Source of the DNA: Escherichia phage p000y
Sequence record: MK047718.1
Length of the DNA: 64,000 bases
Reading direction: 5' to 3' (one strand)
The notes under the pieces are model-generated. The model was not told the origin of the DNA. It saw nothing but the letters and a program-made list of their open reading frames with translations, and made no database searches. How positions within the stretch are numbered: position 1 is the first letter of the stretch; each line of letters begins with the position of its first letter. Both the position numbers and the translations under genes were made by a program. Below, piece by piece: positions 48,624-54,364 of this stretch.

Positions 48624-49019
48624 TCTAATATCAATAAACTTTATTCAGATATCGACCCAGAAATGCGTATGGATTGGAACAAGGACGTTGCTCGTTCTGT
48701 AGGACTTCGTTCTATTAAAAATAGTCTTCTTGGCATAGTGACAACTAGAAAAGGCTCACGCCCCTTCGACCCTGAATTTGGATGCGATTTGGTTGACGAA
48801 CTTTTCGAGAACATGACACCACTTACAGCCGATACGATTGAGCGTAATATCCAGGCAGCTGTTCGTAACTATGAGCCACGCATCGACAAACTTTCTGTAA
48901 GTGTAACGCCAGTATATGATGACTATACAGTTATAGTAGAGATTAGATTTTCAGTCGTAGACAACCCTGATGATATCGAACAAATCAAACTTCAGTTAGC
49001 ATCAAGCAATAGAGTGTAA
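48621..49019 (+). CDS. 25: gp25 baseplate wedge / sheath initiator
   Basis: 132 aa; size and position. Confidence 0.85.
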   Translation: MSNINKLYSDIDPEMRMDWNKDVARSVGLRSIKNSLLGIVTTRKGSRPFDPEFGCDLVDELFENMTPLTADTIERNIQAAVRNYEPRIDKLSVSVTPVYDDYTVIVEIRFSVVDNPDDIEQIKLQLASSNRV

Positions 49020-49099
49020 TGCTTCAAGGCAACCTATGTATAATGGTTTTAGGTCCTTCCGATACAGCCGGGAGATTATTAGTTAAAAGAGAGAACATT

Positions 49100-49513
49100 A
49101 TGAAGCTGGAAGATTTACAGGAAGAGTTAGACGCAGACTTAGCTATTGATACGACAAAGTTGCAATATGAGACGGCGAATAATGTTAAGTTATACAGCAA
49201 ATGGCTACGTAAGCACTCATTTATTCGTAAAGAAATGTTGCGTATAGAGACTCAGAAGAAAACTGCTCTAAAAGCAAGATTAGACTACTACTCGGGACGA
49301 GGTGACGGTGATGAATTCAGTATGGACCGATATGAGAAATCTGAAATGAAAACTGTCCTGGCCGCAGATAAAGATGTGCTTAAAATAGAGACTACTTTAC
49401 AATACTGGGGAATTTTACTTGAGTTCTGTAGTGGTGCACTTGACGCAGTTAAGTCTCGTAGTTTTGCACTTAAACATATCCAGGATATGCGAGAATTTGA
49501 AGCGGGGCAATAA
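49100..49513 (+). CDS. uvsY: UvsY recombination mediator
   Basis: 137 aa from ATG with RBS AAGAGAGAA; closely matches remembered T4 UvsY. Confidence 0.85.
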   Translation: MKLEDLQEELDADLAIDTTKLQYETANNVKLYSKWLRKHSFIRKEMLRIETQKKTALKARLDYYSGRGDGDEFSMDRYEKSEMKTVLAADKDVLKIETTLQYWGILLEFCSGALDAVKSRSFALKHIQDMREFEAGQ

Positions 49514-49995: not shown

Positions 49996-50229
49996 TTAGA
50001 AGTCTTCTTCCTCATCCTCATCATCGTCGCCTTCAAGTTCGGCACGCTTACCTGCTAAGGCATCCCTGACAGAAATATCGTCTGTATCTTTTAATTCCGT
50101 TTCTTTTATACGTTTCTTATAATAAGCTTCCAATTCTTCAAGCCCTTCTAAGGTATGACAACTAGCAATTTTACCCATGAATTCGTCAATAGATGCTTCG
50201 TATAAAAATTGTTTAAATTCAAGTACCAT
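49996..50229 (-). CDS. uvsW.1: UvsW.1-like small acidic protein
   Basis: 77 aa; directly downstream of uvsW as in T4. Confidence 0.6.
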   Translation of the reverse strand: MVLEFKQFLYEASIDEFMGKIASCHTLEGLEELEAYYKKRIKETELKDTDDISVRDALAGKRAELEGDDDEDEEEDF

Positions 50230-50254: not shown

Positions 50255-51769
50255 TTATAAATTAATTGTTTTCATTACATAGTTAAATTTCTCATCAGCG
50301 TAACGTTGGATACGATCAATACCGTGTTTTAACAAGTAATTAAGATGAGTATACTTCTTTTTAGTATTTAATGATTTAGGTTTTACACCTGCATCGTCGA
50401 TGAGATCCCAAACTGTAGCAACAGCTTTAGAACCATGCTTGCGAAGCACACGACCTACGGTTTGAAGTACGATAATTTTTGATTTAACACCATGAGCAAA
50501 AATAACATGATGAAGATTCTTTACTGAAATACCAGTAGAGAATACTCCATATGATGCGACAATAATAATGCCTTTACCATTTTCTGCCATGACTTTAAGC
50601 GCGTTACGTGTTTCAGTATCAACTTCACCTGATACGTAATAAACTTTTTCGTATCCAAGCTCTTTAATAGCTTCAAATATTTCTTTACCGTGTGTAACGT
50701 GTTTAAACATTACAAAGGCGTTCTCGTCTTTCTTGGCCAATTTGACTGAAAGTTGGGCAATCCACTTTGTACGTCGTTTTAGTCCGGTAATAATTTTAAC
50801 TTCTTCTTGGTATGTTTTACCTTTTAATTTAGTGGCGAATTCGTCCGGATAACGAAGGAAAATACTATTAATCTTAAGCTCAGTTACCTGTCCGTCTTCC
50901 ATTAATTTAGACGTGCTAACAGGACGGAAGATTTCGCCGAACATACCTACGTACTGCATTACATTGGCTTTTCCGTCTCTTAATGAGCCGGATAAACCGA
51001 ATTTAAACATGCAATTATTTAATCCTGAGATGATTGAAGAAATACTTTTGCCTGTTGCTAAGTGGCATTCATCGTTCATCATCATACCGAACTGAGAGAA
51101 CCATTCTTTAGGCTGCTTAACTACCGTTTGCCATGTGCCAACAATAATTGGAGCGTCGTTTTTAGATTTGTCTGCTTTATCAGCACCACCGCCAATTTTC
51201 TTAATCATCGAATGACTAAACAAGCGATAATCAACAAAATCATTAGCCATCTGGGTTGTCAATGCTGTTGTAGGGACGATAATGAGAATTTTACCTTCAT
51301 AGTTCTCTAGATAATATCGAGCTAAAAGTGCTTGGATTAGTGATTTACCTGCTGATGTCGGAAGGTTTAAAATTCGACGACGATTAACTAGTCCTTCATA
51401 TACTGCATCTTTTTGATACCAATGTGGTTCGATTTTGGAGTTGCCTGAATAAATTTCTTGTTTAGAAAGCCATGCGTCAAAATCTTCTCTGGTAAGGTCT
51501 TCGGTCTCAAAGATTTTAGGGTCAATCCATACAGAATAACTCATATTGCTACAGAACTTTTTTATTTGTCCTACAAGGCCATATGGTAACAAACGGTTGT
51601 AATCTAAAAGACGAATTCTACCATCCCAGTTCCCATATTTGTAACGCGGGTTGAATTTGTACCCATCGGCTTCAAAGCTAAAAAAGTCGCGTAATTCATA
51701 GAACACGCTTTCGTCGCATTCAATTCTTACATGGCTAAAATCATGAAAATGTACTTTAATATCTGTCAT
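50255..51769 (-). CDS. uvsW: UvsW DNA helicase (SF2)
   Basis: 504 aa; SF2 helicase motifs (LNLPTSAGKS Walker A, DECH box). Confidence 0.9.
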   Translation of the reverse strand: MTDIKVHFHDFSHVRIECDESVFYELRDFFSFEADGYKFNPRYKYGNWDGRIRLLDYNRLLPYGLVGQIKKFCSNMSYSVWIDPKIFETEDLTREDFDAWLSKQEIYSGNSKIEPHWYQKDAVYEGLVNRRRILNLPTSAGKSLIQALLARYYLENYEGKILIIVPTTALTTQMANDFVDYRLFSHSMIKKIGGGADKADKSKNDAPIIVGTWQTVVKQPKEWFSQFGMMMNDECHLATGKSISSIISGLNNCMFKFGLSGSLRDGKANVMQYVGMFGEIFRPVSTSKLMEDGQVTELKINSIFLRYPDEFATKLKGKTYQEEVKIITGLKRRTKWIAQLSVKLAKKDENAFVMFKHVTHGKEIFEAIKELGYEKVYYVSGEVDTETRNALKVMAENGKGIIIVASYGVFSTGISVKNLHHVIFAHGVKSKIIVLQTVGRVLRKHGSKAVATVWDLIDDAGVKPKSLNTKKKYTHLNYLLKHGIDRIQRYADEKFNYVMKTINL

Positions 51770-51774
51770 AATAA

Positions 51775-52506
51775 TTACCTTAAACGGCCTTTAACATATC
51801 CATCTGGGATGGATAACGGATTTACTAATTTATTTATAGCCCCGTTATTTACCCATATTCTGCCGGTGGTCGTAGGTTTTACTTCACAACCCTTTCTAGA
51901 TTTTCTATTAAGTTGGACCATTCCTTTTACAAATCCTTCAGGCATCGGGTCCTCGGCTGATATAAATCTGTTTTCTTTACCGTTGTTAACACAAATTTTA
52001 TTTAGAGTTGTAGGATTTTTAGGACCTTTAATTTTATCAATCTTTGGCTTTCCTGTACCATACCGCCCGTGGCATGTTGGGTCTTCAGAGTATCGACGTT
52101 TATTTGTTTCAGATAGTTTTCTTTTTGTTTCTTCCGATCTGTGTTTTCCTAAAAGATTATGACCAAGCCTCTTTATTCGTTCTTTAGCACTATTAGACAT
52201 TTTAATCTTATCAGCTTCGGTGTACTTATACCTTCCACCTTCACCGCCTTGGCGCATATTATAATACTCGTTAGATTTGACCAAATCCTCTGTTACTAAC
52301 TGAGCTTCGTATTCTAAAGCTTCAGCGGAAGTTTCAAATTGTTTAATTATTGAACGTTTAAATGATTCTTCTCCGTATTTTTTGATAGCGCGATTTAAGG
52401 CAACACCTGACCCTAGATACGAATCATTTAAATTTTCTGTAGAATGTTTGCCAATGTACTTTTTACCATTGATTAAATTTACGGTCTCATAAACAAAGTG
52501 ATACAT
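51775..52506 (-). CDS. GIY-YIG homing endonuclease (Seg-like, likely segE equivalent)
   Basis: GIY-YIG motif YHFVYETVNLINGKKYIGKHST at N-terminus; basic C-terminal DNA-binding region; start uncertain (52506, 52518 or 52557); late-promoter-like TATTTATA upstream. Confidence 0.7.
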   Translation of the reverse strand: MYHFVYETVNLINGKKYIGKHSTENLNDSYLGSGVALNRAIKKYGEESFKRSIIKQFETSAEALEYEAQLVTEDLVKSNEYYNMRQGGEGGRYKYTEADKIKMSNSAKERIKRLGHNLLGKHRSEETKRKLSETNKRRYSEDPTCHGRYGTGKPKIDKIKGPKNPTTLNKICVNNGKENRFISAEDPMPEGFVKGMVQLNRKSRKGCEVKPTTTGRIWVNNGAINKLVNPLSIPDGYVKGRLR

Positions 52507-52555
52507 ACTCTTTTCCATGTAATAAATATAGTTATATTTATAATGAGGAAATATC

Positions 52556-53224
52556 ATGATCGATAAAGACTATATTGAAGAGTTACGTGCTCTTTCTGAT
52601 AAAAAGGAAGCCAAAGCTAAACTGTTCGAATATGCGAAACAATTTGGCATTAGTGTTAAGAAAACAAAATCATTCGATAATATTGTTATTGATATCGAAG
52701 AAGCTCTTAACGCACTGGCTGATGAACCATTACCTGAAACCGATGGATTATCTATCACCGATTTAATTACTGCCGCAGATGATGTGGACGGTGTTAATTT
52801 CACCAACGAAGAAGTTAAAGAAGAAGCTATTCTGTTGTTTGATTCTCCAACAGAACAAGTTGAAGTATTAGAAGTTGTCGAACAAGAAAAAGAATTCGAC
52901 CATGATAAATTCGAAGAAGCAATTACTCAGGTTGTTGAATCCGAAAAAGAGTCTGAGACAGAGGTAAATAAAGAAGTAAAATTTGTTCTGCCTGAAAATT
53001 TTAGTCCTACACTCATTAAATTAGGCAAAGCCCCAGGATATGTTACTGTTCCTTGGTGGATTTATCAATGGATAGCCGAAACCCCAGATTGGAAATCTCG
53101 TCCAACCAGTTTTGTGCACGCTTCTGCTCACCAAACATTATTTAGCTTAATTTATTATATTAATCGCGATGGATCAGTTCTAATTCGTGAAACTCGTAAT
53201 TCTTCTTTCGTAACATTAAAATAA
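52556..53224 (+). CDS. inh: Inh-like protein (putative inhibitor of prohead protease)
   Basis: 222 aa; position immediately upstream of hoc as in T4; very acidic central region. Confidence 0.55.
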   Translation: MIDKDYIEELRALSDKKEAKAKLFEYAKQFGISVKKTKSFDNIVIDIEEALNALADEPLPETDGLSITDLITAADDVDGVNFTNEEVKEEAILLFDSPTEQVEVLEVVEQEKEFDHDKFEEAITQVVESEKESETEVNKEVKFVLPENFSPTLIKLGKAPGYVTVPWWIYQWIAETPDWKSRPTSFVHASAHQTLFSLIYYINRDGSVLIRETRNSSFVTLK

Positions 53225-53233
53225 GGATAACTT

Positions 53234-54364
53234 ATGGCTTTTACAGTTGATATAACTCCTAAAACACCTACTGGAGTTATAGATGAGACTAAGCAGTTTA
53301 CTGCTGCACCCAGTGGTCAAACTGAAGGTGGAACTATTACCTATGCGTGGAGTGTAGACGATGCTCCTCAAGTAGGATCGGCAGAAACTTTTGATTACGT
53401 GTTAAAAGGACCTGCTGGAACAAAAACAATTAAAGTTGTTGCAACAAATACTATTCCTGATACTGACGCTGAAACAGCAGAAATTACTACGACTATCACG
53501 GTTAAAAATAAAACTCAGTCAACTACGTTGGCAGTAACTCCCAATAGTCCTTCAGCTGGAGTAATTGGAACTCCAGTTCAATTTACTGCTGCCTTAGCTT
53601 CTCAACCGGCTGGAGCGTCTGCTACGTATCAGTGGTATGTAGATGATTCACAGGTTGGCGGAGAAACTAACTCTACATTTAGCTATACTCCAACTACAAG
53701 TGGAGTAAAAAGAATTAAATGTGTAGCCCAAGTAACTGCGACAGATTATGATGCAAAGGAAGTTACTTCGAATGAAGTATCATTAACGGTTAATAAGAAG
53801 ACAATGAATCCACAGGTTACATTGACTCCTCCTTCTATTAGCGTTCAGCAAGATGCTTCGGCTACATTTACGGCTAATGTTACGGATGCTCCAGAAGAAG
53901 CGCAAATTGCGTATTCATGGAAGAAAGATTCTTCTCCTGTAGAAGGGACAACTAATGTATATACCGTTGATACCTCGTCTATTGGAAGTCAAACTATTGA
54001 AGTTACTGCAACTATTACTGCAACTGATTACGATAGCAAAACTATTACAGCAGAAGGTCAAGTTCAAGTAACCGATAAAGTTGCTCCAGAACCAGAAGGT
54101 GAATTACCTTATGTCCATCCTCTTCCACATCGTACTTCAGCTTACATCTGGTGCGGTTGGTGGGTTATGGATGAAATCCAAAAAATGACTGAAGAAGGTA
54201 AAGATTGGAAAACTGAAGATCCAGATAGTAAATACTACCTGCATCGTTACACTCTTCAGAAGATGATGAAAGACTATCCGGAAGTTGATGTTCAAGAATC
54301 ACGTAATGGATACATCATCCATAAAACTGCTTTGGAAACTGGTATCATCTATACATATCCATAA
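53234..54364 (+). CDS. hoc: Hoc, highly immunogenic outer capsid protein
   Basis: 376 aa; tandem Ig-like domains with repeated T-Y-x-W and V-x-A-T motifs. Confidence 0.85.
   Translation: MAFTVDITPKTPTGVIDETKQFTAAPSGQTEGGTITYAWSVDDAPQVGSAETFDYVLKGPAGTKTIKVVATNTIPDTDAETAEITTTITVKNKTQSTTLAVTPNSPSAGVIGTPVQFTAALASQPAGASATYQWYVDDSQVGGETNSTFSYTPTTSGVKRIKCVAQVTATDYDAKEVTSNEVSLTVNKKTMNPQVTLTPPSISVQQDASATFTANVTDAPEEAQIAYSWKKDSSPVEGTTNVYTVDTSSIGSQTIEVTATITATDYDSKTITAEGQVQVTDKVAPEPEGELPYVHPLPHRTSAYIWCGWWVMDEIQKMTEEGKDWKTEDPDSKYYLHRYTLQKMMKDYPEVDVQESRNGYIIHKTALETGIIYTYP

Follow-up and report, generated by a model that had tools for sequence, protein, structure and literature searches.

A segE-like GIY-YIG homing endonuclease gene between inh and uvsW of Escherichia phage p000y and the uvsW tract that accompanies it

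The gene situated between inh and uvsW in Escherichia phage p000y (record MK047718.1) is very probably a functional free-standing GIY-YIG homing endonuclease gene and the Mosigvirus counterpart of T4 segE, as judged from sequence comparisons and structural models. It lies in a stretch of 64,000 nucleotides that was analysed as a whole (hereafter, the window). Several GenBank records already label the gene as a homing endonuclease, and the class to which it belongs, as an ordinary representative, is well known; as an annotation, a recognisable SegE-family homing endonuclease is of little importance. The locus nevertheless offers a natural experiment, with dozens of near-isogenic carriers, empty sites and intermediates distributed over two genera. 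This allele set predicts the cutting site of SegE-type enzymes and the small number of nucleotides that would give immunity, and the flanks appear to show a free-standing endonuclease dragging part of the conserved gene uvsW along. The features of the locus are listed in Table 1.

Table 1. Features of the inh–segE–uvsW locus, with positions in the window
Feature	Position	Strand	Remarks
uvsW helicase gene	50255..51769	-	Pfam UvsW_N, ResIII, Helicase_C
Candidate SegE target or immunity patch core, uvsW codons 42–47	51629..51646	-	Inferred from the smallest patch
Carrier-specific haplotype, spacer and uvsW codons 1–47	51629..51777	-	Co-conversion or immunity tract
ORF from first ATG	51775..52557	-	260 aa; contains YHFVYETVNLINGKKYIGKHST
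segE-like homing endonuclease CDS	51775..52506	-	243 aa and stop; start at the third in-frame ATG
Inserted cassette relative to empty-site relatives	51778..52514	-	About 737 nt, ±2 owing to GG microhomology
Two C-terminal repeats	51778..51993	-	CVNNGKENRFISAEDPMPEGFVKG (aa 172–197) and WVNNGAINKLVNPLSIPDGYVKG (aa 218–243)
Second TATAAATA, inside the last segE repeat	51831..51838	-	Codons A-I-N-K; 69 nt 5′ of uvsW ATG
Basic linker with NUMOD3-like helix LLGKHRSEETKRKLSETNK	51997..52233	-	aa ~92–170; gap in comparison with T4 SegE
GIY-YIG catalytic domain	52234..52506	-	aa 1–91; Y6, Y17, G19, E67, N83; Pfam, AF2, Foldseek, profile alignment
TATAAATA, T4 late-promoter consensus	52535..52542	-	36 nt 5′ of segE ATG
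inh, prohead protease inhibitor	52556..53224	+	Divergent from segE; PHROG 1051, E 5e-91

Gene layout, start codon and promoters

The first-pass annotation had placed the gene between uvsW and inh, in the slot that T4 segE occupies, and had considered its start codon ambiguous among three in-frame ATGs. The neighbours are as claimed, with hoc coming after inh, and T4 segE (encoding NP_049795) indeed occupies the identical slot (between inh/hoc.1 and uvsW) in the same orientation and with a homologous left junction. The three ATGs likewise exist, at 52557, 52518 and 52506, but the ambiguity is largely resolved toward the third, which is most likely the true start, as in T4 SegE, because T4 SegE and the whole family begin with MYHFVYE. 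A public database holds the matching 243-aa protein, while the poor spacing of the Shine–Dalgarno-like sequence ahead of the third ATG counts against this start. The first ATG was rejected because it shares sequence with the start codon of inh and is positioned 5′ of the late-promoter motif. The second, which some annotators chose as the start, belongs to ancestral spacer sequence that empty sites have as well, and is a less likely start. An antisense ORF of 143 aa (51731–52162, plus strand) was treated as spurious, being located wholly inside conserved segE/uvsW coding sequence on the other strand. No paralogue of the SegE-like protein was found elsewhere in the window.

T4 late-promoter motifs, which were searched separately from the sigma-70 scan, occur upstream of the segE start and inside the last repeat of the gene. 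The upstream TATAAATA element stands at the same distance from T4 segE as from the window gene and appears to have been captured in both cases, since in empty sites the same element precedes uvsW by 37 nt; the authors of the SA79RD record annotated this motif as a T4-late promoter. The second TATAAATA, near the 3′ end of the window gene, is absent in its exact form from T4 segE. It is also present, at -66, in two further segE alleles, also situated between inh and uvsW, namely those of Yersinia phage MHG19 (P0006) and of a Mosigvirus-like metagenome contig (P0003/L026), and probably supplies uvsW with a late promoter in place of the original one. The scan for sigma-70 promoters and terminators returned nothing beyond shuffled expectation, and no terminator was found between segE and uvsW, which follows segE after a 5-nt gap and is probably co-transcribed with it. 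Expression as we picture it would start with late transcription of segE from the captured uvsW promoter, with uvsW being served by read-through and by the second TATAAATA in the 3′ end of segE.

Catalytic domain, linker and C-terminal repeats

The first-pass annotation had based its GIY-YIG homing endonuclease reading on an N-terminal GIY-YIG sequence, which is YHFVYETVNLINGKKYIGKHST and is present in the ORF, and on a basic C-terminal region. This reading is supported by Pfam SegE_GIY-YIG PF19835 (30.3 bits, cut-off 25), Pfam GIY-YIG PF01541 (25.7 bits, cut-off 22.6), PHROG 314 'homing endonuclease' (E 3e-43) and a match to T4 SegE (tblastn: 49% identity at 99% coverage, E 1e-65). No non-identical relative in the phage collection is closer than T4 SegE itself. 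The region that follows the catalytic domain is also basic as described, with 36 K/R per 152 residues and a net charge of +21. The sole NCBIfam match, TIGR01453 'group I intron endonuclease', scored 51.8 bits, under its cut-off of 56.05, and the intron context is absent.

Aligned with T4 SegE over the full length, as the first-pass annotation had suggested for a check, the window protein is about 49% identical, with values of ~65% in the catalytic domain and ~70% in the two C-terminal repeats. The difference in length (243 aa in the window protein versus 205 aa in T4 SegE) is due to a NUMOD3-like insertion of approximately 50 aa in the linker, which T4 SegE lacks in the alignment. The latter, in turn, has an 11-residue C-terminal tail that the window protein lacks.

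In a profile alignment, FVY (Y6) and YIG (Y17, G19) match Y6, Y17 and G19 of the T4 intron endonuclease I-TevI, and the catalytic, metal-binding Glu (E67) and the conserved Asn (N83), both invariant across 42 relatives, correspond to its E75 and N90; all 13 family-invariant positions are kept. The catalytic domain is modelled by AF2 with pLDDT >96 over aa 1–90, and Foldseek ranks the catalytic domain of I-TevI first (1MK0/1LN0, probability 1.00, target TM-score 0.62–0.65). A PDB search by single-sequence phmmer produced chance matches only, and I-TevI was reached only with the family profile. The two enzymes have in common the catalytic fold and its two Tyr, Glu and Asn residues, together with a two-part design in which the linker may carry a NUMOD3-type helix (a weak match). 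However, I-TevI is intron-encoded, whereas the window gene is free-standing, and I-TevI does not possess the C-terminal β-hairpin repeats of the window protein.

Another difference concerns the catalytic Arg. The helix that corresponds to the Arg27 helix of I-TevI is shorter by 6 residues in the window protein, and the SegE-family profile has no Arg aligned with R27 of I-TevI, which falls inside a 6-residue segment that the family is without. The first-pass annotation had proposed that loss of the catalytic Arg/Glu would speak against a GIY-YIG nuclease. The Glu is kept, but the Arg part is unusable as written, because the whole SegE family has no Arg27 segment, including T4 SegE, which is reported to be an active endonuclease (PMC2330249, PMC2988022). 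The missing Arg27 is a trait of the whole family and therefore weakens strict conformity to the motif, not the likelihood of activity. Candidates for its substitute are H21, Y30 and K43, which are invariant or nearly so.

The linker is modelled by AF2 with helices at 97–114 and 125–141. Its match to NUMOD3 (PF07460) is sub-threshold in the window protein (16 bits versus a cut-off of 20.4), PF07460 is precomputed for many of its relatives, and the family profile weakly matches the minor-groove helix region of the I-TevI DNA-binding domain (1I3J, E 0.06). The repeats that follow have the pattern "xVNNG...PxGFVKG", present twice and common to T4 SegE, and are modelled as β-hairpins (170–183 and 217–228, pLDDT 85–94); they are presumably DNA-binding. 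A Pfam scan of the isolated repeats, with E values up to 10, assigned them to no family; the repeats have no characterised homologue, and neither a zinc finger nor a helix-turn-helix domain was detected in the window protein. The last repeat does match the C-terminal end of an HNH endonuclease family, PHROG 10820. The MHG19 and metagenome alleles share the NUMOD3-like linker with the window protein but have only one WxNNG repeat at the C-terminus, where the window protein has two, and their 3′ half is different. Such an allelic series, in which the same catalytic domain is combined with or without the NUMOD3 linker and with one or two C-terminal repeats, could aid the understanding and engineering of modular GIY-YIG nucleases.

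The cassette, its spread and the linked uvsW tract

Occupied and empty loci were examined by junction-anchored comparisons. In the empty site, TTATTACATGG is followed directly by TAATTTGACATG (uvsW), while in the occupied site TTATTACATGG is joined to AAAAGAGTATG at one end of the cassette and CGTTTAAGG is joined to TAATTATTATG (uvsW) at the other. The insertion point, which T4 segE shares, separates the late promoter of uvsW from its start codon. The cassette was found in 10 of ~141 related Mosigvirus records (~7%), and the rest have a clean 50-nt spacer; the T4-type gene, by comparison, is present in ~30% of Tequatrovirus records. JM17 is among the carriers, and ATK47 and JK45 are among the empties. 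The empty sites are uninvaded and contain no segE remnants.

Among carriers, the diversity of the cassette amounts to 0.35%, as opposed to 1–2.3% in their own flanks, i.e. it is 3–6 times lower. By their flanks, carriers are interspersed with non-carriers, their nearest neighbours often being non-carriers, and the cassette occurs in several flank backgrounds. The low diversity combined with this interspersion indicates that the cassette spread recently by horizontal transfer and is apparently still spreading. The presence/absence polymorphism, the clean empty sites, the low internal diversity and the linked flanking tract described below all agree with the mobile selfish element that the first-pass annotation had envisaged.

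The tract lies on the uvsW side of the insertion. Carriers differ from empties by ~20% over the first ~141 nt of uvsW and by 2% beyond, and the diverged sequence always accompanies segE. Both T4 segE and the window gene are linked to a diverged tract of uvsW codons 1–47, and its boundary is the same codon (47) for the window-type, metagenome-type and T4-type alleles, across two genera. The metagenome gene is ~90% identical to the window gene over its first ~410 nt and has the same left junction; its uvsW 5′ tract, 87% identical to the carrier haplotype, stops at this same end codon. Within the tract, K42R and Q/H47N are fixed across all carrier alleles, and the carrier type at codons 42–47 is kept in all 10 inspected Mosigvirus carriers. 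The same six codons constitute the smallest carrier-type patch in otherwise empty-type alleles, found in G53, SA79RD, AV112 and PE37 and in both genera. Of these, G53 is of carrier type at codons 42–47, and SA79RD and AV112 at codon 47 only, while in the intermediate allele of OLB35 the carrier type covers nt ~62–140. Across the tract, identity reaches at least 95% in every one of the ~158 Tequatrovirus carriers, a threshold that a 7-nt empty-type patch would still pass, and 30 empties are intermediate.

Patches of this kind, anchored on the right, are also expected in empties from single crossovers between a carrier and an empty allele. The 20% divergence alone may, moreover, suppress recombination inside the tract and so keep the carrier tract whole.

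Mechanism, cleavage site and competing readings

The flank pattern, and the tract end shared by three alleles, suggests a cut, recognition or immunity site near uvsW codons 42–47. In the mechanism we propose, the C-terminal repeats and the NUMOD3-like helix would, upon co-infection with a gene-less relative, bind the uvsW 5′ region of this relative, where the tethered GIY-YIG domain would then make a double-strand break. Its repair by recombination, with the carrier genome as template, would copy segE and the interval that reaches from the cut to the insertion point, while the carrier's own uvsW 5′ sequence would be spared because it differs from the target. The cut or key recognition site would be ~125–140 nt away from the insertion point, and repairs that do not extend as far as segE would yield 'empty' alleles that are resistant. 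Similar behaviour is described for T4 SegE, which, in phages without it, cuts the region from hoc.1(inh) to uvsW, homes with an efficiency of almost 100% and has its flanks co-converted (PMC2330249). T4 SegF and SegG, too, cut inside a neighbouring essential or conserved gene, with obligatory co-conversion up to the endonuclease gene (PMC2988022), and the behaviour proposed here would be alike. Their loci and targets (genes 56 and 32) are different, however, and the distant cut in our case is drawn solely from population patterns.

We put forward only tentatively, and at slightly less than an even chance, the specific proposal that the mobile unit consists of segE plus uvsW codons 1–47 as a cleavage-immune allele. 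It would have the same right boundary over at least three segE alleles in two genera and a target at approximately codons 42–47, beside the conserved WDGRIRLL coding sequence; immune empties would be survivors of abortive homing, and one slot would be contested by shuffled alleles. If this is true, ~15% of the Mosigvirus empties and ~9% of the Tequatrovirus empties are abortive-homing survivors with the immunity patch alone, and the segE alleles, whose DNA-binding modules are shuffled (with or without NUMOD3, one repeat or two), represent a small arms race over one site.

Alternatively, the same mechanism may operate with a cut at or beside the insertion point, within the 50-nt spacer that separates inh from uvsW or within the first codons of uvsW; the 141-nt tract would then be a co-conversion relic of donor DNA and not the interval between cut and insertion. 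We regard this as possible, though less likely than not. When 10 carriers are compared with 13 non-carriers, perfect linkage to the gene is seen only for differences in the spacer and in codons 2–3 of uvsW, TAATT[TGAC>ATT]ATGAC[T>A]GA[C>T], and the empty junctions are nearly identical between Mosigvirus and Tequatrovirus. A cut at the junction, however, leaves unexplained why the diverged tract is one-sided, why three alleles in two genera share its end codon, and why carrier-type sequence is frequent at codons 42–47 of empties. Published sources disagree on this point: one paper from the SegE laboratory assigns the site of T4 SegE to intergenic sequence, not to uvsW (PMC2330249), whereas a review lists uvsW as the SegE target in its table and describes free-standing endonucleases as cutting far from their own gene (PMC2988022), which argues against the junction.

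Much less probable than either placement of the cut is that the endonuclease is decaying or inactive, kept for the embedded uvsW late promoter or for want of time to decay, and patchy through ordinary recombination and loss. The TATAAATA that probably drives uvsW does lie in the 3′ end of the gene, such promoters have been argued to favour retention (PMC2988022), and no Arg aligns with R27 of I-TevI. Yet each of the 10 carriers has an intact 243-aa ORF, with 9 variable nucleotides in 727 nt and 2 variable residues, every family-invariant residue is kept, the empties are clean and without remnants, and a cassette that varies less than its own flanks and sits on several backgrounds is what recent active spread would be expected to produce.

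Least probable of all, and to our mind very unlikely, is that the nuclease mainly serves the phage, as a weapon on co-infecting relatives (marker exclusion) or by contributing to recombination or replication in the uvsW region, homing being a by-product: Seg endonucleases do exclude markers of a competitor (PMC2330249, PMC2988022), and SegB is reported in a recent paper (PMC13096335) to be beneficial to the phage, but carriage by only ~7% of the related Mosigvirus records argues against a strong general benefit, and nothing at the locus points to another role. A benefit of this kind would be compatible with homing.

A SegE-family gene between inh and uvsW

The first-pass annotation had read an ORF between uvsW and inh as a GIY-YIG homing endonuclease, and this reading holds. 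The ORF is present in the ORF listing of the window, with 260 aa counted from its first ATG and the N-terminal module YHFVYETVNLINGKKYIGKHST. Two Pfam families score above their cut-offs, SegE_GIY-YIG (30.3 bits, cut-off 25) and GIY-YIG (25.7 bits, cut-off 22.6), PHROG 314 'homing endonuclease' matches at E 3e-43, and Pfam NUMOD3 stays below threshold at 16 bits. The allele belongs to a Mosigvirus, a T4-like phage of the Straboviridae. Escherichia phage JM17 has an identical copy of the ORF (100%), and nine further records have one at 99.2-99.9% identity; several of these already label the gene 'homing endonuclease', and NCBI has a matching 243-aa entry, 'GIY-YIG nuclease family protein'. The gene thus has a generic public annotation. 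The novelty here is descriptive: an allelic series at a single site, a travelling unit defined as segE plus uvsW codons 1-47, and a concrete predicted target/immunity patch, none of it unexpected to a specialist.

Features of the segE locus and its surroundings (window positions)
Feature	Position	Strand
uvsY ORF	49019-49513	+
uvsW.1	49996-50229	-
uvsW	50255-51769	-
uvsW nt 1-142	51629-51769	-
Antisense ORF	51731-52162	+
segE ORF	51775-52557	-
C-terminal repeats of segE	51778-51993	-
Insertion relative to empty site	51778-52514	
TATAAATA copy upstream of segE	52535-52542	
inh	52556-53224	+
hoc	53234-54364	+

Outside the near-identical records, T4 SegE, with which an alignment had been proposed, is the best tblastn match among 50,697 phage records (~49% identity, 99% coverage, E 1e-65). 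As had been claimed, T4 segE occupies the same slot; the order there is inh, segE, uvsW, with segE co-oriented with uvsW, and its left junction is homologous (TTATTACTCGG/AAAATAGTATGTACCAC in T4, TTATTACATGG/AAAAGAGTATGTATCAC in the window, the slash marking the junction). The T4 match, the common locus and the homologous junction thus support the original interpretation; judged by its sequence, the gene is a SegE-family free-standing GIY-YIG homing endonuclease. It differs from T4 SegE in its 49% identity, a NUMOD3-like linker insertion, the lack of T4's C-terminal tail and a different host genus. In phage ATK47 (L002 1-2, record 62750-64033), 'homing endonuclease' is the product name of a CDS whose note describes the head vertex protein gp24, probably an annotation slip.

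Three in-frame ATGs exist, but the ambiguity claimed among them stands only in part. The third (52506), yielding a 243-aa product, is the most likely start, since MYHFVYE, encoded there, is the N-terminus of T4 SegE and of all close relatives. The second (52518), chosen by some annotators and lying within spacer sequence that phages without segE also have, is less likely; the first (52557) was rejected, as it overlaps the start codon of inh on the opposite strand and lies upstream of TATAAATA, the consensus of T4 late promoters. A 143-aa antisense ORF opposite segE and the uvsW start is assumed to be spurious, since the other strand is conserved coding sequence throughout it. Start-codon ambiguity also affects uvsY, whose 164-aa ORF has a long N-terminal extension and is annotated in relatives as either 137 or 164 aa.

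Catalytic domain, linker and repeats

The AlphaFold model of the protein (mean pLDDT 82.5, above 96 across aa 1-90) finds its top Foldseek matches in the I-TevI catalytic domain (1MK0, 1LN0; probability 1.00). In a profile of 42 relatives, I-TevI Y6, Y17, G19, E75 and N90 correspond to Y6, Y17, G19, E67 and N83. Lack of the catalytic Arg and Glu had been named as grounds for rejecting the assignment: the Glu is present (E67), whereas no Arg is aligned, I-TevI Arg27 falling in a stretch of 6 residues missing throughout the SegE family, T4 SegE included. Because T4 SegE is nevertheless reported to be enzymatically active and to home with nearly 100% efficiency (PMC2330249), the missing residue is a family trait and no sign of inactivity.

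Downstream of the catalytic domain the protein is, as had been stated, long and basic (net +21, 36 K/R per 152 residues). The modelled linker comprises helices 97-114 and 125-141. The latter is a NUMOD3-like motif, GKHRSEETKRKLSETNK, with a weak match (E 0.06) to the part of the I-TevI DNA-binding domain (1I3J) around its minor-groove helix; T4 SegE lacks ~50 residues of this linker. Two C-terminal repeats (CVNNG...PEGFVKG and WVNNG...PDGYVKG), modelled as beta-hairpins, are ~70% identical to those of T4 SegE and matched no Pfam family. The repeat pattern x-V-N-N-G ... P-x-G-F/Y-V-K-G is also that of the T4 SegE C-terminus (L003:3400-3627), and the motif is C-terminal in many phage endonucleases, HNH family PHROG 10820 among them; it has the look of a DNA-binding module not yet catalogued and common to different nuclease classes. 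Related proteins encoded between inh and uvsW in Yersinia phage MHG19 and a Mosigvirus-like metagenome contig (L026) keep the NUMOD3 linker but have a single repeat instead of two, so that the slot is home to a series of alleles among which DNA-binding modules have been shuffled.

Distribution of the cassette and its linked uvsW tract

The distribution of segE fits the claim that such genes are selfish mobile elements. Only 10 of the 141 records matching at the locus carry the gene, intact in all 10, the others (empties) having a clean 50-nt spacer (TTATTACATGG/TAATTTGACATG, leading into uvsW) into which the carriers' ~737 nt are inserted. Nucleotide diversity among the 10 cassettes is 0.35%, against 1.0-2.3% in the carriers' own inh/uvsW flanks, a value equal to that among non-carriers. 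Several carriers have non-carriers as their closest relatives in both flanks: the carrier NicPhage differs from the non-carrier mar008P4 by 0.29% in uvsW, and the non-carrier JK45 is closest to the window phage in both flanks. This pattern is the one expected of recent horizontal spread rather than vertical inheritance. In the left flank, beyond inh, hoc is strongly variable among otherwise close relatives (376 aa in the window, 471 in ESh27, 283 in AV112, 421 in L026, two ORFs in NRG-P0074), its part of the flank showing 10-20% diversity versus 1-2% in inh.

One TATAAATA copy precedes the segE ATG by 36 nt. In empties, the same element precedes uvsW by 37 nt, and the SA79RD record's authors marked it as a late promoter. 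Insertion of the cassette therefore separated uvsW from its late promoter, which the cassette captured. A second exact copy, in codons A-I-N-K of the last segE repeat, precedes uvsW by 69 nt and recurs in the L026 and MHG19 alleles. Between segE and uvsW, which are 5 nt apart, there is no terminator-like site. Across the window the motif occurs 19 times versus 7.3 expected (2.6-fold; none of 100 shuffles reached 19). Together with the strand distribution (15 of 19 minus), this enrichment fits late promoters of the T4 type that serve mainly late genes on the window's minus strand.

No polymorphism on the inh side is associated with segE presence. On the uvsW side, all carriers share one haplotype from the spacer through uvsW nt ~141, differing from empties by ~20% (~35 fixed differences, among them Y9H, T22V, K42R and Q47N); past this tract, starting at nt 143, the difference is ~2% and the two types are intermixed. 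Tequatrovirus is independently alike, T4 and ECML-134 (carriers) differing densely from T2, Sf22 and Sf21 (empties) to nt ~139 and being ~99% identical thereafter, and the L026 allele has an identical boundary. For three diverged segE alleles in two genera, the foreign tract thus stops at codon 47, directly ahead of the conserved sequence coding for WDGRIRLL. The carrier BEU50 (L006) is mosaic: its junction and nt ~100-140 are of carrier type, and what lies between (nt ~24-80) is of empty type. Mismatch repair in patches, or two exchanges inside 140 nt, would be suggested by this, although its 193-kb record is flagged UNVERIFIED_ORG and may contain an assembly artefact.

Candidate cleavage site

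Some empties are of empty type near the junction and of carrier type deeper in, always reaching codon 47. In Mosigvirus, carrier type is confined to codon 47 in SA79RD and AV112, covers codons 42-47 in G53, and begins at nt ~100 in AV109 and ZQ3 and at nt ~62 in OLB35; in Tequatrovirus, it covers nt 123-139 in PE37 and begins at nt ~85 in UFV05. BLAST identity classes suggest ~21 Mosigvirus and ~30 Tequatrovirus records of this kind. Codons 42-47 are carrier-type in all 10 inspected Mosigvirus carriers, and all ~158 Tequatrovirus carriers are at least 95% identical over the tract, a criterion under which a 7-nt patch would slip.

Because intermediate alleles reach codon 47 and carriers keep their type at codons 42-47, we lean towards a cut or key recognition site near these codons, in keeping with what is generally seen for free-standing endonucleases, whose cleavage sites lie away from the endonuclease gene itself (PMC2988022). 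Under such a site, the interval from cut to insertion would be obligatorily co-converted, carriers would be obliged to retain the immune uvsW version, and short repair tracts would give rise to immune empties. A cut at or next to the insertion point is a less likely alternative. The reading in favour of codons 42-47 stays tentative: single crossovers would equally produce right-anchored patches, and divergence of the tract alone would suppress recombination inside that of the carriers. For T4 SegE, the site is given as the intergenic region in PMC2330249 and the target as uvsW in the review PMC2988022.

Two groups of sites separate the three carrier alleles from all empties, which agree with one another there across both genera: one near the start (nt 6, 9 and 25; further 39, 63 and 69) and a second at nt 124, 125 and 139 (K42R, Q/H47N), the latter within the codons favoured here as the candidate site. 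Over uvsW nt 1-142, Mosigvirus and Tequatrovirus empties are 83.8% alike, versus ~75% in the rest of uvsW; possible reasons are that the endonuclease target is conserved or that the genera have exchanged this segment.
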